Shown in pieces: positions 7,340 to 57,148 of a DNA stretch of 64,000 bases; position 1 is the first letter of the stretch; each line of letters begins with the position of its first letter. Where the stretch lies: the NCBI GenBank assembly GCA_905235855.1, contig CAJONE010000005.1, positions 1,550 to 65,549 on the forward strand, given 5' to 3'. The notes under the pieces are model-generated. The model did not search any database. It was not told the DNA's origin and saw nothing but the letters and a program-made list of their open reading frames with translations. The DNA comes from an uncultured Bacteroidales bacterium. Lineage in GTDB: Bacteria > Bacteroidota > Bacteroidia > Bacteroidales > P3. Made by a program: the position numbers and the translations under genes.

Positions 7340-7437
7340 CGTTGGGGGTGGATTGGTATATTCTGGCATATGTTAGCGTTTCGCATATCGCGCACACCCA
7401 TAAATCCAATAATTCAGTAAAATAAATACAAACAAAA

Positions 7438-9081: not shown

Positions 9082-9274
9082 CTTGTTGTCCGTGCGAATG
9101 CCCGACAGCGGATTGAAGTCATTGAAAAAATGCCGTTGGCAAGGCTTCCGTAGCATGTGGTGGCGACACGAGAATTCGCTAATCCAAATATTTTGACAAG
9201 TTGGAGGGCGGTGCAAATTATTGCATCGCTCTCTCTTTGTTCAGGCTCGATATAGCGGTTTTAAAAACTTATCG

Positions 9275-9282
9275 TAAATTTG
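9275..9282 (+). promoter_or_regulatory. Bacteroidetes -7 promoter box (TAAATTTG)
   Basis: TAnnTTTG match 44 nt upstream of the 9326 start. Confidence 0.4.
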
Positions 9283-9325
9283 CAAGCTAAAACAAGGAGT
9301 CACAATTCCAAGAAATCTGATCTGA

Positions 9326-11386: not shown

Positions 11387-11493
11387 ACCACTCTATGTTT
11401 AATTTGTGGTGGATTGTTCTGTTACTGATGGTTCTTTTTGGCACGGAATGGGCGGTACGCAAGTATAACGGTGGAATATAGAAACCCGATGCA

Positions 11494-12765: not shown

Positions 12766-12806
12766 GTGTTGTTTTGTAAATTTACTATGTTGCAAATCAA
12801 TCTAAT

Positions 12807-14519: not shown

Positions 14520-14582
14520 CGGCAGGCAATTCTGTGCATCGTATGCTATCAGCCACGATGCATGCGTGCGTTATGGTTAGCT

Positions 14583-26724: not shown

Positions 26725-26812
26725 GGAAAGGTGCTCGAGTGGTTGAAGAGGCCCGCCTGGAAAGCGAGTAAGCGTTAAAAGCGCTTCAAGGGTTCGAATC
26801 CCTTCCTTTCCG
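26725..26812 (+). tRNA. tRNA-Ser (anticodon GGA), type II with long variable arm
   Basis: Manual fold. Acceptor GGAAAGG/CCTTTCC, anticodon loop CTGGAAA, long variable arm (GCGTTAAAAGCGC hairpin), T arm AAGGG-TTCGAAT-CCCTT, discriminator G. No encoded CCA. Confidence 0.9.
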
Positions 26813-26820
26813 CAAAATGA

Positions 26821-27108: not shown

Positions 27109-27218
27109 CGACTAATTCAACAAAAGTGCACAACCTCGTATTGCGCCTATATCCAGCACGGTATGAGGTGGTTGCAAGAAAACGAGAAAATTATTTTATT
27201 CACCAAAACACACTCACA

Positions 27219-29966: not shown

Positions 29967-30019
29967 TTGTTGAATGGCACTGTCGTTGGGGCTCAAATCC
30001 CACCGACATGTCGCATAAA

Positions 30020-30058
30020 CAGGCGGGACACTCCCTAAAGGGTGTCTCGCCTTGTTTT
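30020..30058 (+). terminator. Rho-independent terminator
   Basis: 10 bp stem GGCGGGACAC / GTGTCTCGCC (one G-U pair) followed by TTGTTTT. Confidence 0.7.
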
Positions 30059-30085
30059 AATTGCCGTCGTTTCAATAAAAAACAT

Positions 30086-30093
30086 TATTTTTG
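30086..30093 (+). promoter_or_regulatory. Bacteroidetes -7 promoter box (TATTTTTG)
   Basis: TAnnTTTG match 26 nt upstream of the ATG at 30119. Confidence 0.45.
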
Positions 30094-30118
30094 CACAGTT
30101 TTTCACGGCAGACAGGAT

Positions 30119-33985: not shown

Positions 33986-35332
33986 TTATTTCTTGACGGC
34001 AATCTTTTGGTTGACAACCGAGCCGTCAGCCATTCTCAAACTGACCATGTATATGCCGTTGTTGTAGCGTGCAACATTCAGACCGTAGGTCTCTGCGGAC
34101 ACTTTCGACTCGTCGATTTTCTGACCAGCCATATTGTAAACCACAATTGATTCGACAGTTTTTGGGCTTTCGATGTTAAGCAGAGCCGATGCGGGGTTGG
34201 GATAGAGTTTCACATCGCTGTCCGCTGCCTCGGTTATTCCCGTGACGTAAGGGCTTACCATAACGGTTACATAAGCTGTGCGTGAGCATTTTCTGTCGGC
34301 CGAGGTGGCAGTCAATGCCACATCGGTGTTCTCGGTCAGGTTAGTAAGAGTGATGGATGGGTCGGTAGATGTTTGACCGGCGTAGTTCCAGTTCAGAGAG
34401 GCGTTGGAATGGTCGCATTCGCTGGTAAGGGTGGTGCTTTGGCCCGGGAGAAGGTCAAGGTTGCCGATTATCCTCACCGAGAGATCCTCGTAGACAGTCA
34501 GGTTAATGACAACATTGCTGTCGCACTTTTCTGTAGATTGACCTACTTTAATTGTGTCGACCTTGCTTTCGTTGTAGGTCTTGCCAAGGAATATAAACGC
34601 ACCGCAGGATGTAGTGTCAATGGGGGTGTATTTTGCGTCGTGAATGACGAAGTGTATAAGCAATGTGTTCTCCTGACATTGCCCATTGGTGGTCACAACA
34701 GAAACCCTGGAAGTGTCTCTTGTGGTGTATGATGTTAAACGGTTCACGCCGTTGCCGTAGGAAGCAAAGCCGCAGCCTGATACTGTTGTGTCGCTTGTTG
34801 AGCCAGCCGACGGTGCAACGATGGTGAGGTTAAGTGTGTGCAGTTCGGCGCATGTACCCGTTGTTGCGTCGGCATGAACAGTATCGGTGCATACGGTGTC
34901 GGTGGTGAATGTTTTGTTGCGCCATGCGAACTGGAAACATGCCGAGGTGTCGTAGGAGTAACGTCCGGTGTCCTCTATGGTCAATGTGAGTGTTACTGTG
35001 CTGTCGCACCCGTAACGGTCGCTGAATGTGTGGGTGGCAACTGTGGACTCGCGATAGGTGGAGTCGCCCCATGTGTATTTGCAGCCAGCTGCAACCTCGT
35101 CGGTGAAAGAGCCCCCAAGGTGGACTTCCAAGTCAAGGACATAAAGAGTGTCGCCGCTGATGTAGAATGCCACGGTGTCGTGGTAATACGTTTCGCCGTT
35201 GCCTTCATCCCAAGTATAACTTTCGCAGGCACTTTTTGTGACAAACTCGTGATACAATGACTTTGTCTGTGCCACGGCAATCAAAGGAAACATAAGAGCC
35301 AGCAATGAAGCAATAAATAGTACTTTCTTCAT
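33986..35332 (-). CDS. Secreted Cys-pair repeat protein with T9SS C-terminal sorting domain
   Basis: Signal peptide ...LIAVA|QTK. Five modules of the same C..(Y/F).W..G..Y ... C(D/E/Q)(S/N)..L.L.(I/V) type as in ORF 2-1153. C-terminal CTD is KLYPNPASALLNIE...GIYMVSLRM...IAVKK. Confidence 0.8.
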   Translation of the reverse strand: MKKVLFIASLLALMFPLIAVAQTKSLYHEFVTKSACESYTWDEGNGETYYHDTVAFYISGDTLYVLDLEVHLGGSFTDEVAAGCKYTWGDSTYRESTVATHTFSDRYGCDSTVTLTLTIEDTGRYSYDTSACFQFAWRNKTFTTDTVCTDTVHADATTGTCAELHTLNLTIVAPSAGSTSDTTVSGCGFASYGNGVNRLTSYTTRDTSRVSVVTTNGQCQENTLLIHFVIHDAKYTPIDTTSCGAFIFLGKTYNESKVDTIKVGQSTEKCDSNVVINLTVYEDLSVRIIGNLDLLPGQSTTLTSECDHSNASLNWNYAGQTSTDPSITLTNLTENTDVALTATSADRKCSRTAYVTVMVSPYVTGITEAADSDVKLYPNPASALLNIESPKTVESIVVYNMAGQKIDESKVSAETYGLNVARYNNGIYMVSLRMADGSVVNQKIAVKK

Positions 35333-42006: not shown

Positions 42007-42046
42007 AAATTCAATAATTCCAAAAACAGATTCAAATCTTATTTAT

Positions 42047-42149
42047 TAACCCAAGGGGTGCTGCAAAACTGCGGAGTGCGAACCGATAGTGCTCCAGACA
42101 GCTGAGAACAAACCCTTACAACCTGATCCGGATAATACCGGCGGAGGAA
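42047..42149 (+). promoter_or_regulatory. TPP (THI-box) riboswitch
   Basis: GGGGTGC ... GCTGAGA ... ACCC ... AACCTGATCCGGATAATACCGGCGGAGGAA matches the conserved THI-element core. It ends 6 nt before the ATG of the TonB-dependent receptor. Confidence 0.88.
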
Positions 42150-42154
42150 AAACT

Positions 42155-44401
42155 ATGAAAAAAACTTTATGTGGGCTCTCAAGCAGAGCCGTTGCCGTTT
42201 TGGCAACAATTGTTTCGACAACAATCCCGTTTGGCGCCAATGCGCAGGAACATCGTGACAGCCGCGATTCGGTGCGTGTGCTCGAGGAAGTGATTGTGAG
42301 CGACAGCAGGGTGAGCGCATCGGCGCCTATGACGACAGCGACGCTCACGCGTGACGACATCAGCGACCGCAAGGGCGAAATTTCGGTGCCCTACGTTCTG
42401 GAAATGCAACCAAGCGTTGTGGTTGAGAGCGAGCAGGGCAGGACTGGCAACACGTCGATACGCATCCGAGGTGTGGACGCGACGCGCATCAATGTCAACA
42501 TCAACGGTATCACGTTGAACGACGCCGAGAGCCAGGCTGTATATTGGGTGAACATACCGAATTTGGGCGGAATGGCGCAGAGCCTGCAGCTGCAGCGAGG
42601 TGTTGGCACCTCGGTGGGCGGAAGTGCCGCGCTCGGGGGCACGATAAGCTTCCAAACCCTGACACCGGCATCGGAGCCCTACGCCACGGTGGATATCGGC
42701 TACGGGTCGTTCAACACGAAACAATATGGCATAACCGTCGGCAGCGGGCGCACGAAACACGGTTTTGCGTTCGACATGGCATACAACGGTTTCGGGTCGG
42801 ACGGATATGTGCGCAACAGCGGCAGCGACCAGCAATCGCTTTTTCTCACCGGTAGCTGGTCGAACGACAAAACGCTGCTCAAAGCCATTTTTATACTCGG
42901 ACACCAGCGCACCGAAATAGCCTGGAACGGTTCGACTGCCACTGACCTCGATGCCGACCCGCGATACAATGATGCGGGCATGTATGCCGACGACCTCGGA
43001 AACATATACTATTACGACAACGAGGCGGATTTCTACAACCAGCGCCACTATCAGCTCTATTGGGTTCAGACTTTGGTCAAAGGATGGAGTCTCAATGCAG
43101 CATTCGATTTCACGCACGGCGACGGTTACGACGAGAACTACCGCTACAACAGCAAACCTGCAAAATACGGACTTATAAGCAATGGCAGGGTTGACTGCAT
43201 CACTCAGAAAAACATGTTCAACAGCTCGTATACGCTCAATATGGCCGCAAAATACCGCAACAAATGGGTCGACCTTTCGTTTGGTGCGGCAGGCAACTAC
43301 TACGACGGCAACCATTACGGCAACGTGATATGGTCGAAAGATTCGACACTGAACAAAACCCTTGCACATTATGGGCTACCAAACGGCGATGGCGACAAAT
43401 ATGAATGGTACCGCAACAAAGGTGTGAAAAGGGACGGATCGTTTTTCGCCAAAGCCTCTTTCAGTTTGCTTGACGGGCACATGAATGTGTACGCCGACCT
43501 GCAATTGCGTTTTGTGGACTACACGCTACGCGGTCGCGACGACGAGTTTTTCCGTGACTTTGATTCGGTCGAGATGGACTATCATAAGTTCTATCCGTTT
43601 TTCAACCCGCGTGTGGGCATAAACTACGCATTCAACGAAATGCACCGTATCTATTTTGTTGCCGGCATATCCAACCGCGAGCCAAACCGCTCGGACGTGA
43701 AAAACCACCTGATGATTGGCGAAGAGGTGAAGGCCGAGCACCTTCTCGACATTGAGTTCGGCTATGGGCTGAAAGGCAAGAACTACACTGCCAAAGCCAA
43801 TATGTATGCGATGCTCTACAAAGACCAGCTCACCCCGAGCGGACTGTTCAGCACATCGGGATACGGACTGCTTATAAATGTGGACAAGAGCTACCGTATC
43901 GGTATCGAACTCGAGGGTGGCTACAAGCCGTGTCGCTGGTTTGACTTTGGAGCCAATCTCACGCTCAGCCAAAACAAGGTAATAGACTACGAATACGAGG
44001 ATTGCGACTCGTTGTGGAACTACCGTTCGCACAAAGGGACAACCGATTTGGCAATGTCGCCGAGTATAGTGGGAGCTCTAATGCTCAATTTCAACCCGTG
44101 GAAAACGCTCAAGCTGCAGCTCGTAGGCAAATATGTGGGCGACATGTACGTCGACAACACATCGCGCGAGTCGATGAAGCAGGATGGCTACTTTGTGAGC
44201 AACGCAAAGATATCGTACACATGGACACTGAAAGGGAAGAGCACAATCGAAGCGCAGTTTCTGGTCAACAACCTCTTCAACAACCACTACAGGCTTTCGG
44301 CGTGGGGAAGCGATTCGTGGGATGTCCCGGGTGCGGTCGACAGATATTACTACCAGCAGCCTGGCATAAATTTTATGGGCCGCATTGTGGTCAGCTTGTA
44401 G
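42155..44401 (+). CDS. TonB-dependent receptor (probable thiamine/thiamine-precursor outer-membrane transporter)
   Basis: Signal peptide ...FGANA|QEH, plug domain (IRIRGVDATRINVNINGITLND), a long beta-barrel and a C-terminal aromatic residue. Preceded by the TPP riboswitch. Confidence 0.85.
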   Translation: MKKTLCGLSSRAVAVLATIVSTTIPFGANAQEHRDSRDSVRVLEEVIVSDSRVSASAPMTTATLTRDDISDRKGEISVPYVLEMQPSVVVESEQGRTGNTSIRIRGVDATRINVNINGITLNDAESQAVYWVNIPNLGGMAQSLQLQRGVGTSVGGSAALGGTISFQTLTPASEPYATVDIGYGSFNTKQYGITVGSGRTKHGFAFDMAYNGFGSDGYVRNSGSDQQSLFLTGSWSNDKTLLKAIFILGHQRTEIAWNGSTATDLDADPRYNDAGMYADDLGNIYYYDNEADFYNQRHYQLYWVQTLVKGWSLNAAFDFTHGDGYDENYRYNSKPAKYGLISNGRVDCITQKNMFNSSYTLNMAAKYRNKWVDLSFGAAGNYYDGNHYGNVIWSKDSTLNKTLAHYGLPNGDGDKYEWYRNKGVKRDGSFFAKASFSLLDGHMNVYADLQLRFVDYTLRGRDDEFFRDFDSVEMDYHKFYPFFNPRVGINYAFNEMHRIYFVAGISNREPNRSDVKNHLMIGEEVKAEHLLDIEFGYGLKGKNYTAKANMYAMLYKDQLTPSGLFSTSGYGLLINVDKSYRIGIELEGGYKPCRWFDFGANLTLSQNKVIDYEYEDCDSLWNYRSHKGTTDLAMSPSIVGALMLNFNPWKTLKLQLVGKYVGDMYVDNTSRESMKQDGYFVSNAKISYTWTLKGKSTIEAQFLVNNLFNNHYRLSAWGSDSWDVPGAVDRYYYQQPGINFMGRIVVSL

Positions 44402-44437: not shown

Positions 44438-45088
44438 TTGGTTCAAATCACTTTTTTCAATATTCAGCTTGATCTGGTTGAGGTGGTAGGCGCGGCTATC
44501 GGTCTTGCCTACCTCTTCTTCGAATACCGTGCCAGTATCTGGACGTGGGTGTTCGGTGTTCTGATGCCTGTGGTGTATGTGTGGCTGTTCTTCCGCAAAG
44601 GGCTCTATGCCAATATGGGAATCAACGTTTATTATATAGCGGCCTCGGTGTATGGCTTTGTCGCGTGGCGGCGGACGATGAGGCAAAGTGCAGGTGTTGC
44701 CGATTCGGAGACCGACCAGCTGCCGTCGGGAGGCCAGGTGGCGATTCAAAGCTGCCCGCGCAGGTTTTTCATTCCCATCGTGGTCATAACGCTTCTTTTA
44801 GCCGCAGCCCTGACGTTTCTGCTAATGCAGCTGAAAGAGAGCCAATATCCGTTGCTCGACGGGTTGACGGCCTCGCTGTCAATGATGATGATGTATATGC
44901 TTTCGCGCCGCTGGTACCAGCAGTGGATTCTATGCATCGTCAGCGAGCCGCTAATGATGGCACTTGGCATCCTCACGGGCATGTACGCCACAGCCGTGAT
45001 GTATGCCATTTACCTCGTCGTGGCGGTTATGGGCTACATCAAATGGCGCAGGGACTATCTCTTGCAGACTACGGGCGGAAAACAGTGA
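44438..45088 (+). CDS. PnuC-family transporter (PnuT-like thiamine transporter)
   Basis: 7-TM PnuC-like sequence (VEVVGAAIGLAYLFFEYRASIWTWVFGVL..., YGFVAWRR). Lies in the riboswitch-controlled operon. TTG start. Confidence 0.7.
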   Translation: MVQITFFNIQLDLVEVVGAAIGLAYLFFEYRASIWTWVFGVLMPVVYVWLFFRKGLYANMGINVYYIAASVYGFVAWRRTMRQSAGVADSETDQLPSGGQVAIQSCPRRFFIPIVVITLLLAAALTFLLMQLKESQYPLLDGLTASLSMMMMYMLSRRWYQQWILCIVSEPLMMALGILTGMYATAVMYAIYLVVAVMGYIKWRRDYLLQTTGGKQ

Positions 45089-45098
45089 CAAAAAGCTT

Positions 45099-45692
45099 AT
45101 GAACAGTAACGAAATACCTGTCGAGCGGCATCCGCTGAAGCCGTTTCTGCCACGAGGGGCTCGTCTGCTTATGCTTGGCAGTTTTCCGCCGCCGCGCAAC
45201 CGCTGGCGCATGGATTTTTTCTACCCTAACCCGTCGAATCAAATGTGGAACATATTTGGACTTCTGTTTTATGGTGATGCAGAAAGATTTGTGGACAAGG
45301 AACGGCGTGGTTTTAGGCAGGCTGATATCCAGTCGATGCTTGCCGAACACGGAATAGCCGTTTACGACACGGCCACGGCCGTTTGCCGCATGAACGGCAA
45401 CGCTTCCGACAAAGGCCTGTGTATAGTCGAGAAAACCGATCTGTCAGCACTGTTGTCCGACTTGCCGTTGTGTGGCGATATAGTGTGCACTGGTCAGAAA
45501 AGCATCAGCGTGATTGTTGAGGATTATGGTGCGAGTGTCCCGCCGATGGGTATGGCCAGCGAGTTCATTTTGGGCAACCGGATTATGCGGCTTTGGCGGA
45601 TGCCCTCCTCGTCGAGAGCCTACCCGATGAGGCTGCACGAGAAAGCAGGCTACTATCGCCGCATGATGGTCGCGACTGGTATATTGAAGTGA
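45099..45692 (+). CDS. Uracil-DNA glycosylase superfamily protein (hypoxanthine/deoxyinosine glycosylase-like)
   Basis: LLMLGSFPPP...FFYPNPSNQMWNIFG motif, typical of the family-6-like UDG group. The internal ATG at 45099 is preferred. Confidence 0.55.
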   Translation: MNSNEIPVERHPLKPFLPRGARLLMLGSFPPPRNRWRMDFFYPNPSNQMWNIFGLLFYGDAERFVDKERRGFRQADIQSMLAEHGIAVYDTATAVCRMNGNASDKGLCIVEKTDLSALLSDLPLCGDIVCTGQKSISVIVEDYGASVPPMGMASEFILGNRIMRLWRMPSSSRAYPMRLHEKAGYYRRMMVATGILK

Positions 45693-46396: not shown

Positions 46397-46661
46397 TCTT
46401 TACGTGATAATTCTAAACAACCTAATAGGCTGAATGTTCAGATATTGCATGTGTATACGGTTATTGCTTCGGTTCGAAATGTGCAATTTTGCATTATAGG
46501 GGCACAAAAAAAGCGACCTAAAATGAAAAAAATTGCAAAAAAGTAGCAGTAAGAGGTCATAAATAAGAAAAAACTGTACTCAAAATATCGTCATAGTCGA
46601 CCACCTGCAAATATGAGAATTTTCTCCGCAAAAAAAATGTCGGTGATTGTGCAGACTTTTA

Positions 46662-46669
46662 TAATTTTG
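46662..46669 (+). promoter_or_regulatory. Orphan Bacteroidetes -7 promoter box (TAATTTTG) with no downstream ORF
   Basis: TAnnTTTG match. The ~140 nt between it and the 46788-46819 hairpin contain no ATG-initiated ORF. Confidence 0.35.
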
Positions 46670-46787
46670 CAACGTCTTAAGAGGTCAGAAGAGGTTTTGT
46701 TGGTTTGCCTCTTCGCGCACAAGGGCTTTTTCCGAAACGCCGTGTGCTGAAAAAAAGGGCACTTAAGATATAGTTTGGTTTAAAAGC

Positions 46788-46819
46788 AAATACCGGGTGG
46801 TGAAAGCCGCCCGGTATTT
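46788..46819. terminator. Strong hairpin, probable bidirectional terminator
   Basis: AAATACCGGGTGG-TGAAAG-CCGCCCGGTATTT forms a 13 bp stem with one G-U pair. T-rich on the minus-strand side (TTTGCTTTTAAA) and TTTGTGGTTT on the plus side. Confidence 0.65.
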
Positions 46820-46854
46820 GTGGTTTAGGTCCGTGCCAGGTCGGTTACCTGGGA

Positions 46855-49800
46855 TCACCTGCAAACACCTGTGTTTAGGCGTAGATATTGCAGAGTCTGA
46901 AGAAAAAGAAACCGATATTCCTGACTCCACGGAGGGACTTGCGGAATGATTTTATTTTTGAGTTGAACTGTTCGGCGGATGCGTTGGTGGAGCGTTGGTT
47001 GTAGTAGTTGAACCAGCGTCGTCCGCTCGGCCATGCCCATGCCTCCGCGCCGGAACTGGTCCTCTATGCTCTCGTCCGTCTGCGCATCCTCTGTCGCATC
47101 TTCTTCGCCGTCGCGGAAACGGATGTCGTCGTTGGCAGGGTCGAATGTTCCGACGTTCTCGGTCGCGCTCTTTATCTGGTTGGGCGACATCGGTATGTAG
47201 TCGGTTGATAGCGGTGGTTCGCTGCCGTCTCTCAACTCTCCCGCGTAGCCGCCCTCGCGTATGTTACGCACAATCACCCCGTCGTAGCCGTTCTTTGCGG
47301 CGTTGTGCACCTCTGCCTCCATCTCCAGTGTGCCTGCATCTCCCCACGTCTTGCCGCCGAAGTCAATCACCAGAGGGTTGCGCATGTTCACATAGCATTC
47401 GTACACGTCCGGCACACGCTCCATGCCGATGCTCACAATCTCGTCTATTGGCGTTTCAATCCCGACATATTCCAGTATGTCGCCGAGTATTTCCCTGTCA
47501 AGGTGGTCTCCTGCTTCGAGTTTTTCTCTTATCACATCGGCAAAATTCCCCCAGCCGTACAGTTCATCAACTTCATAGTCTCCGTCTGTTGCAAACTCTG
47601 CCAACTGCCTTGCTGAAATGTCGTCAATTGCCACCTTTTGCCCGTTTACTTGCAGTATGCAATCAGCTTCGCGTTTGAACATGTCTGCGGTGCTGCGGTC
47701 GTTGCTGAAAAACGACGGCGTGTTGAATATTCGTATCTGCTCGCCACTCCTGCTGCCGTGGTACACCACCTGCGGCTCGCCGTTCTCGTCCACCACCTTT
47801 GATGAATTGGTTTTTGCCGACAGAATATCTTTTAGTATCTTTGCAACATCTCCAAGATGGGAGCCGGTATCAATCCCGGTCTTGAACTCCTCGTCTTGGA
47901 GTTCTTTTTGAAGCGCAACCTCATGCAGATAGAAACGGTGTGTACCGTCCGAATGTGTGACCTCGTTGGCGACAACAATACAGATATGGTTCTCCTCACC
48001 GATTTTCACGGGTGCTGCAAAAGTAACCGAGCCGTAGCCTCTGCCCTTCCAGTTTTCCTGTCGGTCTATTATACGCCCGCCCGATATGATTTCGGGTACT
48101 GCGGCAAATGCAGCAGCCTTTGTGCGTCCGAGTCCATGCGAGATACTGTCCTTGACGCTCCTTTCGTCAAGAAGTATTGTTCCGACACCAGCTCTTTCCA
48201 CTCTCCCGGCATACTTGGTGTCATAATATTCGGCGACACGCTTTGTTATGGGCATATCGTCTTTTTCAAATTCGTTCCCGGTCAGGCGCGCTACCACGTC
48301 GTCACCAAGCAGATAGGCTGCAATTGCCGCTTTCTCCCAATCGCCAAACATCGTCTTGAAAGCCTGTGTCCGTACCTGCTTCCACTGGCGGTCGTCCAGC
48401 TTGCTCGGTTTACCGTTGGGTGCTTTCTTCCATGTGCCGTCGGCTTTGGCTTTGCGCTCTATCTCCATCTCCTCGGCCCGAATGTCGGCCTGCCGTTCCG
48501 CCCGCGTCTTTCCGTCGCGTAGCGTTATGTCGTCCTCTGCTGCCATTCCCTCTCTCTGCTTCTCCACCTTCCAGTCTCTGCCGTAAGGTGCCTTGTCCGC
48601 ATACTCTCCCACGCCCAGCTCGGCCTGCATCGCTATGTCCTGCGCCTGTCTCACATATCCCCAGTTGCCCTCGGGCTCTGTCAGGTTCTTCCAGCTCCGC
48701 CACAGCACAAACCTCAACTCGTTCTCCGTGATGGTGTGGTTGCCGATCCAGTCGCCCATACCTATCTTCTTCACCATCCTTATGAACCAGTCTTTCACCA
48801 TCCTCCACCAGCTCTCATACTGTGGGTGTTCGAAGTTCTGCGTCTCCGCCATTTTCGCCATATACTCCTCTGTGGCGGTGCGGACGTTCCAGTTGTATTT
48901 CTTCGAAAGCGACGCTATCTCTCTCCTTATATCCTCCGTGCTGTGGGCATACACGTCGTCCAGGAACGTGTCGAAGTTCTCTCCAAACAACTCCCTCAGT
49001 CCGTGGTGTGCCACCCCTTCGTGGAGTATAGTATGGAACACATCGTCCATCCCCGTGTTGTTGTACATGATGACGTATATCTTCCCCGTCTTGGTGTCGT
49101 ACCACCCTTTGGCTCTCTTCTGGCGGTCGGTCAGGTTCATGCCTTCCAGCTCGTCGATGTCCAGCACCACGTTTACTCGGTCGCCCAGGTTCAGCTTCTC
49201 GGCAAACCTCTCGGCCGTCTTCTTCCGCTGGTTCCACACTCTCTCTATGTGGCGGTCGAACTGCGCCTTCGTATACCCTGCCTTCTTCGCCCTCTTCAAC
49301 GCCTCGTCGTATGGCGTGTAAGTCACCTGCGGCCCTTCGCCTATCCTCGTCACTACCGAAATATCGTTCTCGCTCTCGGCCTCTTGTGAATTATTTTTTG
49401 CAGTTTCGGGATAATTCAGTAATTTTGCAGCTGAAAACGAGTTGTTGCCTGAGCGGGGGAGTTCGCCATTATTGTCGTCTCCATGTGTCCCTTCCAACAA
49501 CTCGATTTCTGTTATTTCATAGCTGTAAGCTTTCGATTTTTCGTTTTCACTATTGTAGCGCTTTACCGTTGTTTTGACACGGTAGAGTTGGCCATCAATG
49601 TCTATTCCACCATACAAGCGTACAACGTCTTTCAAGTGTCTGTCGCCTTTTTTGTCATCATGAACCTCTCCAACAATGGAGTTTTCTATGATACTCGGCA
49701 TAACTTTCAGAGCAGAAAGGTGAACATCTTTGTTGTCGCTCTTACTGACAGCCTTTTCGCTTAGGTATTTGTCAACGGCTGTGCTGCTGATATTGACGTT

Positions 49801-52800
49801 TCCTATTTCTGGGTTCTCATATTCTCCGACAATGTTTTGCTTTGCCCACTTTCGCGCCTCCTTGAAGTCCTTGAAACCATGTTCCTTCTCCGCTCCAACA
49901 ATATTGACAGTTCTATTGTCATTCTCATCACCTCCCACCTTCTGGAACATTATCCCCTCTTTCCCTCTCACCGTCTCCAGCGTCACGTTCTTTCTGCTCT
50001 CCTCGTTGCCGTGCTCGTAGCTCACCACAGTAAGCCCTGCATCCTCCAGCGCCTGCCGCACATCCTCGCTCACGTTGTCCGGCACCACCGCCACCTCGAA
50101 CTCGTCCAGCATTACGGGACGTTTGAACTTCGTCTCGAAATACTTGGCCGGCAATGTCTTCACGTCTTCTATGAAGTTCATAAGTTGCGATGCCAGATCG
50201 CTGTCTTTGGCGATGTCGTAGCCGTACTCGCTGTTAAGGTATGCTATCGGGTCTCTCTTGGTCAACGCCTCCTGCAGTCTGCTCTCAGCGATGTCGTTGT
50301 TGATAAACGGGTTGCTGTCTATCTTCTTCATATCCGAAATCTGTCCCACGATGTCAAACAGCTCGTTGCTCAGTTCTTCGGTTCTCTGCTCCATCTGGCT
50401 CTTGCCGTCGCCGTCCTCTATGACACCTCTGTTCAGCAACTCTTTGTGTTTCCTAATGTCGCTCAGGCTTTTGAACCTCGGTAGCAGTATGGCTCTTGTC
50501 GGACCGAATCCTGTCTGGTCGTAGCTGTTCTGCTCTGCGTTTTTGTTCATGAGCTTGCTGGCGTTCTCCACCGTGTTCGGCACATACCTTCTGTTTCCGC
50601 TTGGTGTCCATCCTGCAAACAGCTTCTCGTCTATGTCCTCGTCGTTGAACAGCGTCTCTTTCCACTTGTAGTATTCTTCAGCCAGTCCTTCCTTGGCTAC
50701 CATATAGTCCGCATCGCTGTCCGTTCCGTACCAATCCACCTCTGGCTCATTGCGTCTCCGCTCGTCCATCTGCAGTCCGTGCAGGTAGTTGTCCGTGGCG
50801 TTGAAGTACATCCTGCCTTTCTCGTCAACGTACTTCGCACGCTTAGCGTCAATGAGCAACTGTTCGGCTTTCTTCCTCTTCTCCTCGTCGGCTATACCTG
50901 CGGTGGCTTTCTTCGCCTCGTTCTCTATGTCGCCCATTATGAGTTTTAGGAGCTCATCTTTCTGCTCCTGTGTCAGGTCGTCAAAAGAGACGTTCGAGAG
51001 GTTATCTGCTCCCGTAATCTTTCTTGCTGCTTCGTACTCCTCCGGTGTGCTGTCTATCCTCTTCATCTTCTTCTTCGGGTCATACCCTTTCTGCTTCAAG
51101 AATATGAACGCCAGGTTGTGTGTGTCGCCATCCACGAAACGCTCCAGCTGCTGCTTCAGATGTCTTTCCAGCTCTTTGTCTCCGTTCGCTGCCTCTTTCG
51201 CAATCTGATCGAAGTGTTTCTCTCCCTGCTTGGTCATCATCTTGGTGATGCTGGGATAAGTAGGAGTCCATGCGTCGCCTGCGTATGTGCCTGCATTCCG
51301 CCCTGTCCTGCTGTCTATCAGGCTTGCTTTCGGTATCAGGCTTATCTCGCCGTAGACATTCAGCGTGCCGTTCTTCGTGTCTATCACTGCCATGCTCGGG
51401 TTGGCGAACCCGCCCTGCTTCAATGCCTTCTTCAGCTTCTCCTCGCTTATGTTGTGTACGCCCATCAGCGTCTTCTCCTCCGTCGCTCTCGGGTTGTACC
51501 CTCTTGCCAGGTCGCCCATCACCATGTCGGCGAAGTCGTCGGCTGTCAGGTTTTCTACCCCCTCCACCTTGCCTGCGAAGAGGTCACGTGCCATGTTCCA
51601 GAACTTGCTCAGTATCTCTCTCAGCTTGTGGAACATCGTGGCCACCTTCGCCTTCTCGAATACATCGTGGGTCTTCGACATCTCCTCTCTCATGTCCGCC
51701 TCCAGACGTTCACGCCCTCGCTTGCCGCTGTAGTGGGCAAACACCTCATCCGTCAGCTCGTCCTCGTTCTTCAGCTCCGGGTAGCGTCCTCTCACGTACT
51801 CCCACAGCCGTCCGTCCTCCACGCCTTTCATCTCCTCGGTCAGCTGCGCCCATGCCGTCGGGTTGGCTTTCCGCAATCCCTGCGCCCACAGGTGCGTGTA
51901 CTCGTGTATCGGTGTGTCGGGTGTCGCCACTCGCGGGTCTATGTATATCTCGCCGTTCAAAGTGTACCCCAGCACCTCCCCGTCCTCCGTCTTGAAGAAC
52001 ATCGGCTGTCCTTCCATCACGCTCTCCTTCATCTCGGGTGTCACGTCCACGCTCCACATCGTGAGGCCGTTGTCGCCGATATTCGGCAACTCCACCTCCC
52101 CGGTTTTCACTCCCCACTTCTTGCCGTACTTGTCCATGAACCTCGGCAGTATCTGGTCGTAGAACCCTTTCATCCCCTCGCCTCCGATATGCATGCCCTC
52201 GCCTTCGATGGTTTCCCACTCGGTATTCATTATTTTCTCTGCAAGAGACTTGCCAAACACCTCTGAAACGTGTTTGCCATTGGCATTTTCCATAAGTCCA
52301 TTGGCTTGTGAAATAATGCCATCTTCCGAAATGTACATGGCAGACTGACCACGCTCTGGGAATTTTAGATTTACCATTTTCACATCTTTCCCATCCCGTT
52401 TTACTGTCTGTATGTCTATCTTCTCTACGGCTTTACTCAGGTCGTACCTCTCCGCCTGCTGCTCGCCCTTAGTCCAAGCCACCTTGTCGTAGCCGTTCTC
52501 GGCGGCATACCGCAGCATGCGCTTCATGCACACCTCGTGCCAGTTCTTGTCAAACGGCGCGTCGGGAACATCACCTGCATTTCTTCCATTCACTCGTTCC
52601 CACTCCATTTGTGCCTCTTCTGCATCATTGAGTGCTTTAACCAGTTTTTCGTGTTTGCGCCATTCGTCTTCGCTTCTTTCTAACGGGTGCTTGATACCTT
52701 TCTTTTCGAGTTCATCATTGTAATCCTGAAGTTCGTCCCAAGCATCTTGACTTGCTTTTATCAAACGTTGCAATTCCTTCGGACGATATCCCTTCTCTCT

Positions 52801-55800
52801 TCCCTCCTGATGCCTATTGCTCTGTATCTCGTCGATGACCAGTACGCGCTTGCCGTCCTTGTCCGTCGTCTCTCCGAACCTCACCCACGCCACGGCGCGG
52901 CCCTCGCCTGCGTCGCCGAAGTGTATCTCGTCGCTCTCTTTCCACGGCTCGATGGTCGGCACGGTCAAGGCTATCTCGCTCCTGTTCTCCAAACCCTCGG
53001 TGGTGTATTCCAGGCGAGTGGAGTTGATGTATCTGTAACCATCTATAGATTCAAGGTAGTCTTCAAAACCATCATTGATTTCTATTCTGCCGCCTGTTCC
53101 GTCTAAAGCCATATTGAAGTCGTCACCATAACGCTCTATCATCTCGTTCCATGCGCCCTCCCAGTTCCCGTCATGTTCCTTTATCAATTCATCGTATTCT
53201 TGTTGCAAGGCAGTTAGACCGCTCTCCGAATAATTCACCTCTTCAATCTGAAGGGCATTCTCACGGATATAGTCCAGCACCTCCTGCTTGGTGAGGCTCT
53301 TGCCTTTCTGCTCGTTGAGCCAGTCGCTTAGTCCCGTCCACTTGTCCTCGCCAGCTTTCAGTCCGCCGTTCTTGGTGAGCATGGCCTTCCACTGCTCCGC
53401 CGTGGCTTTCTCTTGCTTTATACCCTCCACGGCTCTCATCGCATTCGAATAGAACACAGGCTTCATCTCCGGCACATACTCGCCACCCTCGGCCTTGTGG
53501 AATCGTATCTTGTCGACTATCTTGAGGTTGTTCTCGTCGAAGACGACGTAGTTCTTCGCCCCGTCGCTCCGGCCACCGCTCATATACTCCGCAGGGTACT
53601 TGATGCCCACGTAGCCCATCGAGTGCAGGAACTCCGAAGCAGCCTTGTCGCTGCCGGTTATAGCGGTAATGATGTTGTGGTAGACAGCACCGCCCTGTCT
53701 GTTGGTAGCCTCCCCAGCGTTCAGGTACTCTCTGTCGAGCCATTTGTCTATACTCACCTCGTCCGACTTCGGATACCTCTCCTTGGCTATCGGCATTAAG
53801 CGCTCTTTTATCTCATTCCACCTCTCCGTTTCAGGCAGGTTGGTGTAGTCAAAGTAGTTGCTCCCGTCGTCGTCGGGTATCTCCACCGTGTAGAGGATTT
53901 TGTCATAATCATTCTCATTAAAACGTCTTTTGTCTTCTTCCCTAAGTTTTGTTAGTTTCTCCTCTGCCTTTTCGTAATTCTCTTTTGCTTGTTCTTTATC
54001 TTCTTCGTTGGCGTGTTCGTAATCCCATAAAGCATTTAATAAGTCTTTATTTGCGGCTGTGATTTTTTTAGATAGTTGTCCTCTACTTGTGCTCTCCGCA
54101 TACATCCTCCCAATCCCTTCCACCTCCGTAACGTAGGTGCCATATCCGTAAGCCTGCGCCCCTTCGCCCTCGCCCATGTGCGAGTGGTCGAATGCCTCAA
54201 AGTCAGCACCGCTGCCGTGGTAGGCTCGCATCTCGCGCAAATTGCTCTGCGGCAGGTCGTGTTCCACTGGGAAATAGCTGTAATTCCCTCCCACGTCCTT
54301 GGTGTGCAGCTTGCAGTCCGCATCTATCACGCTGATGTTTCCGGCTGCGTCGCGCACGATGTTGCTTTTCTGCAGGTCGGCCACTATTATCTCGCCGTTG
54401 CTGAAGGCTGAGTTCTCCTTGTTTATGGGCTTGAATCCAAGTCCGGCCATGTACTCCACGCGCTCCTGCTCGGTCAAAGGTTTGCTGTTGGAAAAATTGA
54501 CAATGGGCTGTTCCAGCACACGGACAAAACCTTTTCCAAAGTCTCCATACCCAACTATCTTATATGCAGAGTTGGGAAACACATAGTTGAACAGGGGAAT
54601 GTTGTCAAGGTCGGGTCTGAAACGCTTGCCTTCGGGCTTGCCGTGCGAGAGTTTTATGACGTGCGTACCGTCCTTGGCGGCGTACACGTCGCTGTCTGTG
54701 CCGCTGCCGATAGGTTCTGTGTTGTCGGTGAAATCTGTGAGGTCGGTGTGCCAGTTGCCTGTAGCTTTAGCCCACCGCTCTAACAGCTCTTTCTTCTTTG
54801 CCTCGATAGCTCTTCTTCCTGACGGACGAGTTCGTTCATTCGGTCTGACTGTGCTTTCAGAAACTCGTGTGAAAAGTGCATCGAGAGCGTTCTCTCGCGC
54901 TCTTTCATACATTCTTCGTTCCACTTCCTGTGGAAGTCGTTCAGATAGCCGTCGTCCGTACTTGTTGTCTGGTGTGACATCATCTATGAAGTCTCTAATT
55001 TCTTGCAAAGATACATCATTATATTCACCTGACAAAATAATATTGTACACCTCTTTTGCATCCTCTCTCCGTTTCTCTTCTCTGGCGAGGCGTTTTCTGC
55101 GTGCTTCAGCAACGCTTTTCCCTGTCACAAAAGCCGTGGCTTCGTCTATTACCCTGTTCTGCTCTTCCCTTTCTTTGCGCCTCTCGCTCATCTCGCCCCC
55201 GCTCATCAGTTTCACATTCTCTCTGTACTTGTCCAGCATCTCCTGGCCTTTCTTCGTCACGTAGTGCGTCGGCACGCCCGTGGCTTTCAGCACCTCCACC
55301 ACGCCTTTCGTCAGCTCCTTCTGCTCCTTCGTCGGCTTCGCCGTTTCTCCCTCCGACTTCTGACTCCGCACGTTGGCTCCATACAGGCCCTCTCCCAATC
55401 TCCGCAAGTCGTCTCGGCTCTTCAAACCTTCGCTCTCGTACCACTGTCGCAACGTCTCGTCGGGCACAACACCAGACAGCGACACCAGGTATTCGTCAAC
55501 CTGATGCCCTGCGTTCTTCTTGTAGTTGCCATTGTAGGCAAAGTCCTCGAAGGCTCCGCTGCCCTCGTTCTCTTTCAACCCTTCGACGATACGGCGCACG
55601 TTGGCTCCGATTTCCTCCGGGGTCATCGTCTCGCTGACGGGCGTAAGGCCGAAAGGTTTTTCATAGCCTGTGCCCTCGGCAAGGATACGCTGCTTGCGCT
55701 CCTCCTGGAGTCTTTGCTCCCGGCTCTCCGCTACTGCTCCTCTTCGGTCTCCGTCGGCTTCGTTTCCTCGCTGTCCTCCATCACCTTCTTGTGTGCCTTG

Positions 55801-56193
55801 AACAGCAGATCGAGTTTCCGCGCTTTCAGGTCTTGTTTCGGTTGCGACTGCTGCTCCGCTGGCTGCTTCGGTGTTGTCTGATTGTCCATTTCTTTTCTTT
55901 TTATAATATTCTACTATGTCTTTCTTTATATCCTCTTTCGTCCTCGGCTCGAACAAGGCAAGTCCTCCACTGTTCGCTTCAGCCTCCGCACTCTTGTTAT
56001 ATAACGTCAACACATCTCTAAAATTATCCACTCCGCTGCTCATCTCGTCGGCCATCAGCACCACAGCCGGCTCAAACCTGTCTTCTACCAGCCCTTCTAT
56101 CAGGTTGCCCTGTCGCTTGAACTCATCCCATTTCATCTTGCTCCGTCTGGCTTCGTACAGCAGGTCTATCGTCGTGTTTATCTCTTCTGTCAA
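46855..56193 (-). CDS. Giant (3112 codon) polyvalent-type multi-enzyme protein
   Basis: Single open frame. By-eye modules are a kinase-like domain (aa ~490-632), a YHGS ART-like module (aa ~655-900), HEYTH zincin (aa 1430-1434), HEGVAHH zincin (aa 2391-2397), two related ~135 aa modules (aa ~2095-2235 and ~2630-2765) and a second YHGS/PNQIKS ART-like module (aa ~2795-3030). TTG start. The last ~60 codons are an out-of-frame transposase remnant. Confidence 0.8.
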   Translation of the reverse strand: MTEEINTTIDLLYEARRSKMKWDEFKRQGNLIEGLVEDRFEPAVVLMADEMSSGVDNFRDVLTLYNKSAEAEANSGGLALFEPRTKEDIKKDIVEYYKKKRNGQSDNTEAASGAAVATETRPESAETRSAVQGTQEGDGGQRGNEADGDRRGAVAESREQRLQEERKQRILAEGTGYEKPFGLTPVSETMTPEEIGANVRRIVEGLKENEGSGAFEDFAYNGNYKKNAGHQVDEYLVSLSGVVPDETLRQWYESEGLKSRDDLRRLGEGLYGANVRSQKSEGETAKPTKEQKELTKGVVEVLKATGVPTHYVTKKGQEMLDKYRENVKLMSGGEMSERRKEREEQNRVIDEATAFVTGKSVAEARRKRLAREEKRREDAKEVYNIILSGEYNDVSLQEIRDFIDDVTPDNKYGRRLSERLPQEVERRMYERARENALDALFTRVSESTVRPNERTRPSGRRAIEAKKKELLERWAKATGNWHTDLTDFTDNTEPIGSGTDSDVYAAKDGTHVIKLSHGKPEGKRFRPDLDNIPLFNYVFPNSAYKIVGYGDFGKGFVRVLEQPIVNFSNSKPLTEQERVEYMAGLGFKPINKENSAFSNGEIIVADLQKSNIVRDAAGNISVIDADCKLHTKDVGGNYSYFPVEHDLPQSNLREMRAYHGSGADFEAFDHSHMGEGEGAQAYGYGTYVTEVEGIGRMYAESTSRGQLSKKITAANKDLLNALWDYEHANEEDKEQAKENYEKAEEKLTKLREEDKRRFNENDYDKILYTVEIPDDDGSNYFDYTNLPETERWNEIKERLMPIAKERYPKSDEVSIDKWLDREYLNAGEATNRQGGAVYHNIITAITGSDKAASEFLHSMGYVGIKYPAEYMSGGRSDGAKNYVVFDENNLKIVDKIRFHKAEGGEYVPEMKPVFYSNAMRAVEGIKQEKATAEQWKAMLTKNGGLKAGEDKWTGLSDWLNEQKGKSLTKQEVLDYIRENALQIEEVNYSESGLTALQQEYDELIKEHDGNWEGAWNEMIERYGDDFNMALDGTGGRIEINDGFEDYLESIDGYRYINSTRLEYTTEGLENRSEIALTVPTIEPWKESDEIHFGDAGEGRAVAWVRFGETTDKDGKRVLVIDEIQSNRHQEGREKGYRPKELQRLIKASQDAWDELQDYNDELEKKGIKHPLERSEDEWRKHEKLVKALNDAEEAQMEWERVNGRNAGDVPDAPFDKNWHEVCMKRMLRYAAENGYDKVAWTKGEQQAERYDLSKAVEKIDIQTVKRDGKDVKMVNLKFPERGQSAMYISEDGIISQANGLMENANGKHVSEVFGKSLAEKIMNTEWETIEGEGMHIGGEGMKGFYDQILPRFMDKYGKKWGVKTGEVELPNIGDNGLTMWSVDVTPEMKESVMEGQPMFFKTEDGEVLGYTLNGEIYIDPRVATPDTPIHEYTHLWAQGLRKANPTAWAQLTEEMKGVEDGRLWEYVRGRYPELKNEDELTDEVFAHYSGKRGRERLEADMREEMSKTHDVFEKAKVATMFHKLREILSKFWNMARDLFAGKVEGVENLTADDFADMVMGDLARGYNPRATEEKTLMGVHNISEEKLKKALKQGGFANPSMAVIDTKNGTLNVYGEISLIPKASLIDSRTGRNAGTYAGDAWTPTYPSITKMMTKQGEKHFDQIAKEAANGDKELERHLKQQLERFVDGDTHNLAFIFLKQKGYDPKKKMKRIDSTPEEYEAARKITGADNLSNVSFDDLTQEQKDELLKLIMGDIENEAKKATAGIADEEKRKKAEQLLIDAKRAKYVDEKGRMYFNATDNYLHGLQMDERRRNEPEVDWYGTDSDADYMVAKEGLAEEYYKWKETLFNDEDIDEKLFAGWTPSGNRRYVPNTVENASKLMNKNAEQNSYDQTGFGPTRAILLPRFKSLSDIRKHKELLNRGVIEDGDGKSQMEQRTEELSNELFDIVGQISDMKKIDSNPFINNDIAESRLQEALTKRDPIAYLNSEYGYDIAKDSDLASQLMNFIEDVKTLPAKYFETKFKRPVMLDEFEVAVVPDNVSEDVRQALEDAGLTVVSYEHGNEESRKNVTLETVRGKEGIMFQKVGGDENDNRTVNIVGAEKEHGFKDFKEARKWAKQNIVGEYENPEIGNVNISSTAVDKYLSEKAVSKSDNKDVHLSALKVMPSIIENSIVGEVHDDKKGDRHLKDVVRLYGGIDIDGQLYRVKTTVKRYNSENEKSKAYSYEITEIELLEGTHGDDNNGELPRSGNNSFSAAKLLNYPETAKNNSQEAESENDISVVTRIGEGPQVTYTPYDEALKRAKKAGYTKAQFDRHIERVWNQRKKTAERFAEKLNLGDRVNVVLDIDELEGMNLTDRQKRAKGWYDTKTGKIYVIMYNNTGMDDVFHTILHEGVAHHGLRELFGENFDTFLDDVYAHSTEDIRREIASLSKKYNWNVRTATEEYMAKMAETQNFEHPQYESWWRMVKDWFIRMVKKIGMGDWIGNHTITENELRFVLWRSWKNLTEPEGNWGYVRQAQDIAMQAELGVGEYADKAPYGRDWKVEKQREGMAAEDDITLRDGKTRAERQADIRAEEMEIERKAKADGTWKKAPNGKPSKLDDRQWKQVRTQAFKTMFGDWEKAAIAAYLLGDDVVARLTGNEFEKDDMPITKRVAEYYDTKYAGRVERAGVGTILLDERSVKDSISHGLGRTKAAAFAAVPEIISGGRIIDRQENWKGRGYGSVTFAAPVKIGEENHICIVVANEVTHSDGTHRFYLHEVALQKELQDEEFKTGIDTGSHLGDVAKILKDILSAKTNSSKVVDENGEPQVVYHGSRSGEQIRIFNTPSFFSNDRSTADMFKREADCILQVNGQKVAIDDISARQLAEFATDGDYEVDELYGWGNFADVIREKLEAGDHLDREILGDILEYVGIETPIDEIVSIGMERVPDVYECYVNMRNPLVIDFGGKTWGDAGTLEMEAEVHNAAKNGYDGVIVRNIREGGYAGELRDGSEPPLSTDYIPMSPNQIKSATENVGTFDPANDDIRFRDGEEDATEDAQTDESIEDQFRRGGMGMAERTTLVQLLQPTLHQRIRRTVQLKNKIIPQVPPWSQEYRFLFLQTLQYLRLNTGVCR
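46875..47021 (-). pseudogene. 3'-terminal remnant of an ISL3-like transposase gene
   Basis: The minus-strand frame +1 relative to the giant ORF translates to RRWFNYYNQRSTNASAEQFNSKIKSFRKSLRGVRNIGFFFFRLCNIYA*. This fits the TNxxxExxNxKIKxxxR...G(V/F)...F..R(L/I) C-terminal signature of ISL3-family transposases. That frame is closed by a stop ~11 codons upstream of RRWF. Confidence 0.55.
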
Positions 56194-56302
56194 CGCATAG
56201 TCTCCAAGCCTGCGGTTCTCTGCTATCTGCGGACATCATGTTTTGTCGTTAAGGCAATAAAACACGAGAGAATACGTTGTTTAAACAAACCGTTGCAACA
56301 AT

Positions 56303-57148
56303 ATGGCGTACAAAAACCACACACTTTCCGCTACTTTGCCAGACGACTATACACGTGTGTTTCTCATAGAGCTGAAAGCTGCCATCCGCGAGGGGTCGCC
56401 TTTCTTTGCCCGCTATGGGGGATACGGGATGGAGCCTCTTCTTCGAAATGGGTTGGAAAGAGTGTGCGTGGTGCAAATCGAACAGGGGCTTAAACCCCAA
56501 CGGTATGATATATTAGCGATTGAGAGAGAGTCGAAGTGTGTATTTCGCCGTTTTTTGTGCTGTAAGGGAGAAAAATTTGTGGTTATGGGAGACTCCTGCC
56601 GCAGTGAGGAACTGGTCGAACAGGCGGCGGTGTTAGGCCGTGTGAGCGAGGTGAAACGCGGTGACGGCAAGTCCCTAATGTGCGGTGGCGATGTATGGAT
56701 GAAGCACTCGGCCAAGTCTGTAAAAAAACGGCAACGGATAAACTGGCTAAAGAACCTTTTCAGTGGAAAACGGATGAAATATTGGGCTGCCGCCTACTTT
56801 GTGATTTTGCTGCTCTCGATGTGGATGCCGTTGGGCGGGTTGCCGCTGCCCGACAATTTTATTCTCGGCCTGCGACCCGACCATTTTTTTCACGCCTCGA
56901 TCTATTGTTTTTGCGCTTTTTTTCTGACTAAATTGATGGGCATGCGAAACGCATGCATGTTACCGCATTGTCTGACTGTTTGGCTTGGGAGTATGGCAAT
57001 CGGTGTTGTCACAGAATTCGGGCAGAAACTGCTGCCATATCGCTCGTTCGATATAAACGATTTGATTGCAAACGCTATCGGAGCCACGTTGGGGTGGCTT
57101 GCGGTTGAAATGTTGTGCAAAACGGACACTTCTATTGCAAAAACGTAA
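56303..57148 (+). CDS. Fusion of an S24/S26-peptidase-like beta-barrel (catalytic Ser replaced) with a VanZ-like membrane domain
   Basis: The N-terminal part has GYGMEPLLRNG, RYDILAI and VVMGDS (the S24/S26 pattern is GxSMxP). The C-terminal 4-TM domain with EFGQKLLPYRSFDINDLIANAIGATLG is VanZ-like. Confidence 0.55.
   Translation: MAYKNHTLSATLPDDYTRVFLIELKAAIREGSPFFARYGGYGMEPLLRNGLERVCVVQIEQGLKPQRYDILAIERESKCVFRRFLCCKGEKFVVMGDSCRSEELVEQAAVLGRVSEVKRGDGKSLMCGGDVWMKHSAKSVKKRQRINWLKNLFSGKRMKYWAAAYFVILLLSMWMPLGGLPLPDNFILGLRPDHFFHASIYCFCAFFLTKLMGMRNACMLPHCLTVWLGSMAIGVVTEFGQKLLPYRSFDINDLIANAIGATLGWLAVEMLCKTDTSIAKT

Follow-up and report, generated by a model that had tools for sequence, protein, structure and literature searches.

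The 64,000-nucleotide stretch of DNA analysed here (the window; contig CAJONE010000005.1 of the uncultured Bacteroidales assembly GCA_905235855.1, positions 1,550 to 65,549) carries a 3112-codon open reading frame (ORF) at 46855-56193 on the minus strand, with a TTG start according to the ORF listing and its translation. We found that its 3112-aa product, a 'hypothetical protein', is an internal fragment of a phage gene for a polyvalent protein, and is neither a host gene nor a new system. Probably, the locus is what remains of a prophage gene for a giant protein of this class after recent truncation at both ends. A first-pass annotation of the window had described a whole multi-enzyme gene, which does not hold: the piece is internal, lacks a native start, and ends in 65 unrelated codons. 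Its suggestion of a relic of a decayed element is the best reading, both truncations having been traced by homology.

The family was identified with Pfam. When the full-length product and ten overlapping 420-aa segments of it were scanned, PF18762 (Kinase-PolyVal), PF18760 (ART-PolyVal, twice), PF18814 (PBECR5), and PF18798 (LPD3, twice) all scored above the gathering cut-offs. Effector-type, class-specific domains are combined here in one polypeptide, as in the polyvalent proteins of Iyer et al. (2017, J Bacteriol 199:e00245-17; PMC5512222), and the first-pass assignment to this class was correct. The fragment resembles the phage-type proteins of that study in its beads-on-a-string chain, its module mosaicism, and its possession of Kinase-PolyVal, ART-PolyVal, PBECR5, and LPD3. 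It differs from them in being an internal piece only, without MuF/MuF_C, the ParB core, or packaging neighbours, and in containing four modules (A-D) that have no Pfam model. In PHROGs, the product matched three phage families of 2900-3500 positions with no assigned function. Most likely, it represents a known kind of polyvalent protein and not a new kind of system.

Searches for other functions in the ORF product were negative. The NCBIfam scan gave no match, neither Pfam nor NCBIfam indicated a methylase or helicase, and 0 families of the PADLOC defence models were matched at E<=0.01. Regular-expression searches of the 3112 aa found neither GxxxxGK[ST] (Walker A) nor [DNS]PP[YFW]. The first-pass annotation had reported the same absence, but considered it unusual, whereas it is common in this clade; since the N- and C-terminal parts of the gene were lost, the lack of methylase and helicase modules says little here. 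The kinase-like domain had likewise been recognized correctly and taken as unusual. This kinase type occurs primarily in (pro)phages of Bacteroidetes and Verrucomicrobia (PMC5512222), and its presence is therefore expected.

Both ends of the ancestral gene are absent, and the damage noted there in the first pass had been understated. A search of 5.8 billion proteins gave 237 relatives, of which 120 were listed and 119 were compared by BLASTP. The relatives were mostly 2000-5400 aa long and carried the polyvalent Pfam set, with the kinase in about half of the 120 listed. Except for the identical P0001, all listed relatives covered at most 38% of the query, and no orthologue with the same truncated architecture was found in this search. 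Residue 1 of the query aligned to residues 1315-1958 of sixteen homologues of 4000-5400 aa, and tblastn with subject segments placed the 5' limit of homology at 56235, 14 codons upstream of the TTG start. At the other end, the BLASTP alignments stopped at residues 3026-3044 while the subjects ran on for 1000-1500 aa. Real similarity ended in the linker '...NQIKSA...DIRFRDGEEDATEDAQT' at residue ~3041-3045 (residue 3045 being window ~47059) and was followed by noise, and P0090 continued past this breakpoint with RadC and MuF_C. As judged from these alignments, the ancestral gene has lost ~1300-1950 N-terminal and at least 1000 C-terminal residues. The features that define the two ends were as follows.

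47059..56235, minus strand: stretch with homology to the interior of phage genes for polyvalent proteins; the relic proper (~3059 codons; blastp and tblastn)
56236..56238, minus strand: in-frame stop marking the 5' breakpoint; 8/8 tested homologues align from the next codon
46855..47058, minus strand: unrelated 3' tail of ~65 codons plus stop, read-through; no homologue beyond ~residue 3045
46787..46820, minus strand: strong hairpin followed by UUUGCUUUU (U-run), terminator-like, 34 nt after the stop codon

In an alignment of eight relatives, conservation was unbroken across the 5' breakpoint, and P0037, whose homology to the window begins at residue 1626, had a ddrB-ParB Pfam match at residues 1361-1487, ~140 aa upstream. 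Therefore, the 5' cut lies inside a conserved block and removed a ParB-type DNase. Only 64 nt separate this break from the start codon of the divergent VanZ gene (56303), and the only candidate starts are the TTG codon and an internal ATG (M20). With neither a native 5' start nor a native 3' end, the ORF does not qualify as a complete gene. The hairpin at 46787..46820 had a folding energy of -27.1 kcal/mol in RNAfold (z = -3.96), and 0 of 200 shuffled sequences folded as well; it was not called by the consensus terminator scan, and its sequence had no exact match in the viral and metagenome collections. Comparison of the 704-bp left flank with GenBank phages, the fetched loci, and Rfam returned nothing. 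Between the thiamine diphosphokinase (TPK) gene and the stop of the ORF (46397-46855), ~460 bp of anonymous A/T-rich non-coding DNA contained repeated words resembling TTGCAAAAT/ATTTTGCAA in addition to the hairpin, and likewise had no match in these sets.

Four conserved blocks without a Pfam model, common to many homologues, lie between the Pfam domains and are designated modules A to D. The resulting order of the fragment, from its N-terminal side, was as follows.

55774..56235, minus strand: N1, C-terminal remainder of the conserved block that follows the ddrB-ParB DNase core in relatives; ParB core deleted
54301..55431, minus strand: conserved pre-kinase region (residues 255-460) and Kinase-PolyVal (residues 465-631; PF18762, E 3.8e-38, 131 bits)
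53494..54231, minus strand: ART-PolyVal module 1 (residues ~655-900), a divergent, insert-bearing copy (PF18760, 33.2 bits, cut-off 31.2)
51994..53481, minus strand: module A (residues ~905-1400), no Pfam model, at least 17-27 homologues
51484..51996, minus strand: module B (residues 1400-1570), no Pfam model, HEYTH at 51892-51906, 78 homologues
50857..51480, minus strand: PBECR5, predicted RNase (residues 1572-1779; PF18814, E 7.7e-21)
49909..50826, minus strand: module C (residues ~1790-2095), no Pfam model, 30 homologues, within the phrog_22978 match
49543..49863, minus strand: LPD3 copy 1 (residues 2111-2217; PF18798, E 1.8e-25 for the whole protein, two stretches)
48574..49233, minus strand: module D (residues ~2321-2540), invariant H-E-x3-H...E (phrog_14770, E 2e-52)
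47929..48243, minus strand: LPD3 copy 2 (residues 2651-2755; PF18798, 34 bits on the segment scan)
47143..47790, minus strand: ART-PolyVal module 2 (residues 2802-3017; PF18760, 53 bits)

The modules have kept their conserved residues. Among alignment columns conserved in at least 90% of the homologues of each module, the kinase retained 35/35 (47 homologues), ART-PolyVal module 1 28/29, module A 45/46, module B 18/18, PBECR5 20/21, module C 29/30, module D 15/16, and ART-PolyVal module 2 21/21, including its YHG and YDG motifs. The few deviating columns were conservative or common to a phage homologue. Decay was considered as the cause of the single deviation in PBECR5, E1701Q, but this was rejected, since P0002, a phage homologue, carries the identical residue.

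This architecture agrees in part with the modules proposed earlier. The two related modules of ~135 aa correspond to the LPD3 copies, and of the conserved-looking blocks pointed out in the first pass, EIQSNRHQEG and DAPFDKNWHE belong to the unannotated module A of ~500 aa, while GVHNISEEKL..PSMAVID forms the start of PBECR5. The two ART-like modules are real ART-PolyVal domains (the Pfam match of the first covers residues ~655-780), but their motif had been given as H-Y-E and is H-Y-D in Iyer et al. (PMC5512222). Two HExxH zincins had also been proposed. Only one strict HExxH was found in the ORF product by regular expression, HEYTH at residue 1430 in module B, which is presumed to be zincin-like; the other is HEGVAH in module D, an H-E-x3-H with a distal invariant E. 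Zincin-like metallopeptidases (MPTase) for self-processing are found in many polyvalent proteins (Iyer et al. 2017, PMC5512222). Neither module B nor module D matched MPTase-PolyVal or any other Pfam model, also when the members of the module D alignment and the relatives of module B were included.

Structural comparison was made for modules A and D. The AlphaFold2 (AF2) model of module D had a predicted local distance difference test score (pLDDT) of 85 and a predicted template modelling score (pTM) of 0.81, and placed the invariant H-E-x3-H...E on a helix after three short strands. A Foldseek search of this model against the PDB gave no neighbour at E<1, and the zincin label is therefore unproven. 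Module A is characterized by the blocks EIQS..HQEGR, PDAPFxKNWHE, KRMLRYAAENGYDKVAWT, and GGEGMKGFYD, and its core was modelled with a pLDDT of 78. Foldseek found no significant neighbour for it in the PDB; recurrent weak local matches to GNAT-like folds (E 0.03 or worse, probability mostly low to moderate) provide only a hint of a GNAT assignment. In BFVD, module A matched 19 large proteins of uncultured phages at E<1e-3, several of which were labelled polyvalent-associated. PDB sequence searches with the whole protein and with the profiles of modules A and D returned only noise. MuF_C and portal-linked domains were absent from the fragment in the Pfam scans.

At the level of the whole ORF, the purine skew was strong across 46855-56193, as in a K/E/D/G-rich coding strand. 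The codon usage was less host-like, with a correlation of relative synonymous codon usage (RSCU) of r 0.63, compared with 0.87 between host halves.

The relatives whose context could be read pointed to phages, namely podovirus-like phage contigs and Bacteroides or Bacteroidales prophages. P0002, which shares 65% aa identity with the fragment over 1180 aa and 95% in module D, is encoded between the P22_portal and SU10_MCP genes on a 44-kb rumen phage contig (L001). P0004 is encoded close to a P22_portal gene, and P0060 within a prophage that also carries SU10_MCP. The P0010 gene is 3 kb downstream of a prophage integrase gene, in the vicinity of KilA-N/ANT genes. The best matches in GenBank were cultured temperate Bacteroides phages, one of them annotated as 'DarB-like antirestriction'. 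The genes of BF1-TP2 (gp68), BS-TP4, and BKO1-TP3 (GenBank PQ571263, PQ571277, PQ571269) share 38-42% aa identity with the fragment across PBECR5, module C, LPD3, and module D. In contrast to the fragment, the genes of the cultured phages and of L001 are complete (3633-4982 aa) and stand within full phage genomes; BF1-TP2 gp68 (3633 aa) lies a few kb from the repressor and integrase, with a DnaJ-like gene just after it. This integrase- or portal-proximal position explains how a stump could survive. A whole-protein search of viral contigs found nothing, its patterns being too specific.

DNA comparison with L001 gave identities of 94.5% over 805 nt (module D) and 87% over 1387 nt, and of 65-80% elsewhere, and module D is 95-96% identical in aa sequence to P0002 and P0003. 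At the DNA level, the fragment is a mosaic whose modules are shuffled among homologues. InPase, ddrB-ParB, LPD38, and PBECR2, which are of phage type only in Iyer et al. (PMC5512222), occur in the relatives. A similar concept is known from phage P1, whose antirestriction proteins DarB and DdrB, both large and multi-domain, are carried in the capsid and enter the host together with the DNA. The ParB type of DdrB occurs in relatives of the fragment, where the corresponding part has been deleted, whereas the fragment has neither the methylase-helicase dyad of DarB nor sequence similarity to it.

No other phage gene accompanies the fragment. Among the neighbouring ORFs scanned at 27-64 kb there was no integrase, tra/mob, capsid, or terminase gene, in agreement with the first-pass annotation, which had also described the flanks accurately. 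A thiamine pyrophosphate (TPP) riboswitch (42044-42166), a TonB receptor, a PnuT-like gene, and TPK lie on the left, and VanZ, a Na/Ala symporter, and a DNA-alkylation repair gene on the right. Farther out are YicC, ApbE, cargo proteins of the type IX secretion system (T9SS), a tRNA methyltransferase, a RecD-like helicase, and subunits of pyruvate:ferredoxin oxidoreductase (POR). The (pro)phage packaging or conjugation context that belongs to the description of polyvalent proteins was seen in the relatives and not at the window; the ancestral gene presumably stood in a phage packaging context.

In a comparison of synteny, the locus proved to be a break in the nearest relatives. The nearest GTDB species share with the window only the genes downstream of the symporter. 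In the closest VanZ relative (64% identity), an epimerase lies upstream of VanZ, and where TPK is closest (65-74% identity over the thiamine block), PKD, M23 peptidase, TrmD, and PyrH genes follow it downstream; neither relative has a PolyVal gene. These different neighbours indicate that the fragment sits at the meeting point of two conserved blocks, an arrangement seen in this lineage only. No empty site turned up: a search of genome contigs with the symporter gave 80 loci, 3 of which have the downstream genes in common with the window and 0 of which share the upstream side, and the corresponding VanZ search gave nothing.

Several further observations were made in the surrounding region. Within the TPP-riboswitch operon, an extra ORF (45003-45692, plus strand) separates the PnuT-like transporter from TPK and has a weak, sub-threshold match to the hypoxanthine-DNA glycosylase TIGR04274 (33 bits, cut-off 80); in L098, the closest relative, PnuT directly adjoins TPK. 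A 198-kb contig (L095/L099; JGI 3300031993, Ga0310696_10000054) carries VanZ-symporter-alkylation repair at 64-82% aa identity and, ~19 kb away in the opposite orientation, DUF308-epimerase-POR at 74-97% (epimerase 96%, POR_N 97%). The TPK after POR on this contig is only 54% identical. Divergence is very uneven, and the gene order is unlike that of the window. Within the window, Por_Secre_tail, the C-terminal sorting domain of T9SS, occurs in three ORFs (27126-29966, 30008-31927, 33986-35332), and a tRNA-Ser(GGA) gene at 26725-26813 lies just upstream of them.

An assembly artefact, in which a phage fragment was misjoined or a full prophage collapsed at a repeat in module B, is very unlikely, although it had been named as a possible chimera in the first pass. 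It would account for three other assemblies that end or diverge at 51921-51969: ERZ28573638, which covers the left junction and ends at 51921; a Logan contig that covers the right junction from 51934; and ERZ27234816, which matches from 51969 on, the point where it runs into an AT-rich polyubiquitin gene. L087 is visibly chimeric in this module, and a further Logan contig ends at 46899. However, ERZ1667847, an independent 36-kb contig, runs from TPK through the entire ORF to VanZ with 1 mismatch, and look-ups by the exact VanZ and TPK proteins showed the left junction in 3 assemblies and the right junction in 4. Since both junctions recur, a chimera is unlikely. A single unbroken alignment to P0002 (residues 1899-3141) reproduces the order A-B-PBECR5-C across the fork, and there is no DNA repeat inside the window. 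All of the forks occur in module B, whose aa sequence is 92% identical to P0033 from another locus, and are thus repeat-induced breaks; the near-identical module elsewhere is probably what causes the assembly fork. If a prophage had collapsed, the two truncated ends would still adjoin chromosomal genes. All copies seen belong to one clone (1 mismatch in 20 kb). In L087, 871 nt of AT-rich sequence with a polyubiquitin gene are joined in module B, probably as a eukaryotic (rumen protist or fungal) chimera.

Similar stumps were present in other Bacteroidales chromosomes. In L002/L003 (GCA_017479385.1, JAFVCE010000005.1), a compact island at 1947-16440 between DPP-IV and QueG contains a tyrosine integrase, a PolyVal gene in two overlapping ORFs (1655 and 2025 aa), three small ORFs, and one ORF of 121 aa. 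The island resembles a prophage stump and has the integrase-proximal layout of BF1-TP2 and L110. At 10001-17118 of L111/L112, an orphan gene for P0033 (2092 aa, MuF_C and RadC) was found in 6 contigs from several samples, next to a DnaJ/TerB-like gene and a ParE toxin pair and among the housekeeping genes AsmA, IspD, CoaE, YajC, NusB, and LeuRS. In L093, P0058 (1875 aa) adjoins lpxA. Like the window copy, these stumps measure 1.9-3.7 k aa and have housekeeping flanks and zero to few phage-derived neighbours. They differ in keeping an integrase, a DnaJ-like phage gene, or island genes, and in one of them a frameshift divides the gene. Of the stumps compared, the window copy is the most reduced and has the longest open frame.

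We propose the following history. In related phages, the full gene encodes ~4,600-5,400 aa and is located within or next to the virion module, or else at a distance of a few kb from the integrase of the prophage. By analogy with the proteins of Iyer et al. (2017) and with phage P1 DarB/DdrB, its product would be packaged in the capsid and ejected with the DNA, and would then probably be processed into units that act on the host in early infection by modifying or damaging its components. These units would include a protein kinase, ADP-ribosyltransferases, a PBECR RNase, and a ParB-type DNase. Deletions or rearrangements in the chromosome of a rumen Bacteroidales bacterium probably then removed the integrase, the structural genes, and the first ~1300-1950 codons, the ParB core included. 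The last 1000 or more codons, which in relatives encode RadC, MuF_C, InPase, and LPD38, would also have been lost. The remainder is ~9.2 kb of in-frame coding sequence, followed by ~65 junk codons up to a chance stop. Without a native start or the rest of the phage, the fragment would be unable to do its original job, and it is presumably not expressed. At 15 kb, such a gene accounts for at least a quarter of the prophage and is located close to the integrase end, so the stumps that survive are often parts of it.

The open frame quite probably reflects youth rather than function. Of the possible point changes in the ORF, 4.6% create a stop, and with a modest indel rate, which is an assumption of the estimate, a neutral 9.3 kb frame should break at roughly 0.1-0.5% divergence. 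Since a neutral frame breaks early and this one is still open, either the truncation is very recent or the frame is under selection. The intact conserved residues, together with 87-94.5% DNA identity to the phage contig, suggest recent decay rather than long domestication, and the absence of this architecture from other lineages, the junk ends, and the single clone argue against selection.

Some observations weigh against a young prophage leftover. A 9.3 kb frame without stop or frameshift and with its conserved residues kept would be expected under selection too, and a strong terminator-like hairpin stands just after the stop. Long open PolyVal stumps occur in the chromosomes of at least 3 other lineages and were possibly retained for a reason. 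No direct or inverted repeats of at least 9 nt are common to both junctions, and there is no att scar. With no scar at the junctions, the fragment may have been inserted by illegitimate recombination instead of having decayed in place. The recurrence of stumps leaves a small chance that this fragment and those like it are kept by selection, either as an exapted host multi-enzyme (for example, against superinfecting phages) or as a standing module library.

The specific forms that such a role could take are hard to reconcile with the locus. The first-pass annotation had also considered a domesticated chromosomal multi-effector, in which the truncated protein would be expressed from the region shared with the divergent VanZ gene and its kinase, ART, or RNase modules used, for example, against phages or competitors. 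This would fit with the intact 3112-codon frame and nearly complete set of conserved residues, the hairpin after the stop, the identical sequence in several samples, and the other long open stumps. It is nevertheless unlikely, because the 5' end is cut inside a conserved block with only TTG or M20 as a start, the 65-codon tail is junk, and no other lineage has an orthologue of this architecture. No TAnnTTTG-type promoter was found on the minus strand at 56100-56600, a weak test given that the same scan misses the VanZ promoter, and sigma-70 motif scans were no more informative. There is no PADLOC match and no secretion or delivery signal, and the copies, being all one clone, do not evidence persistence over time. 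A silent recombination cassette, that is, a promoter-less reservoir of modules with which infecting or resident phages would recombine and which would feed the mosaicism of polyvalent genes, was put forward by Iyer et al. (PMC5512222) for the cassette-like ORFs of Verrucomicrobium spinosum. The module-wise mosaic of DNA identity (94.5%, 87%, 65-80%) and the shuffling of modules among homologues agree with this idea, but are equally expected from one mosaic parent phage. Here there is a single fragment with no adjacent full-length locus, no cassette array, and no host benefit to maintain it, which makes this quite improbable. An origin from an integrative conjugative element (ICE) is the explanation to which we give the least credence. 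Some relatives carry RadC (PF04002), which is conjugative-specific in Iyer et al. (PMC5512222); however, the RadC-bearing relatives also carry the phage-type MuF_C, and the relatives whose context was read stand alone or adjoin phage genes, between P22-type portal and SU10-type capsid or beside a prophage integrase. No relaxase, type IV secretion system (T4SS), or ICE-only domain (primase, ArdC-N, SMS/RadA) was found in the window or in the nine distinct relative loci that were read.

The main lesson concerns annotation, as a 'hypothetical protein' of a metagenome-assembled genome may be a fragment of a phage gene. Very large phage genes leave long, still-open stumps in chromosomes, by which gene catalogues can be misled and metagenome assemblies broken. 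At the same time, the fragment cleanly delimits modules A-D, four widespread and conserved phage modules not covered by Pfam. With no solved structural neighbour, these modules are reasonable biochemical targets among the proteins that phages inject into Bacteroidales.

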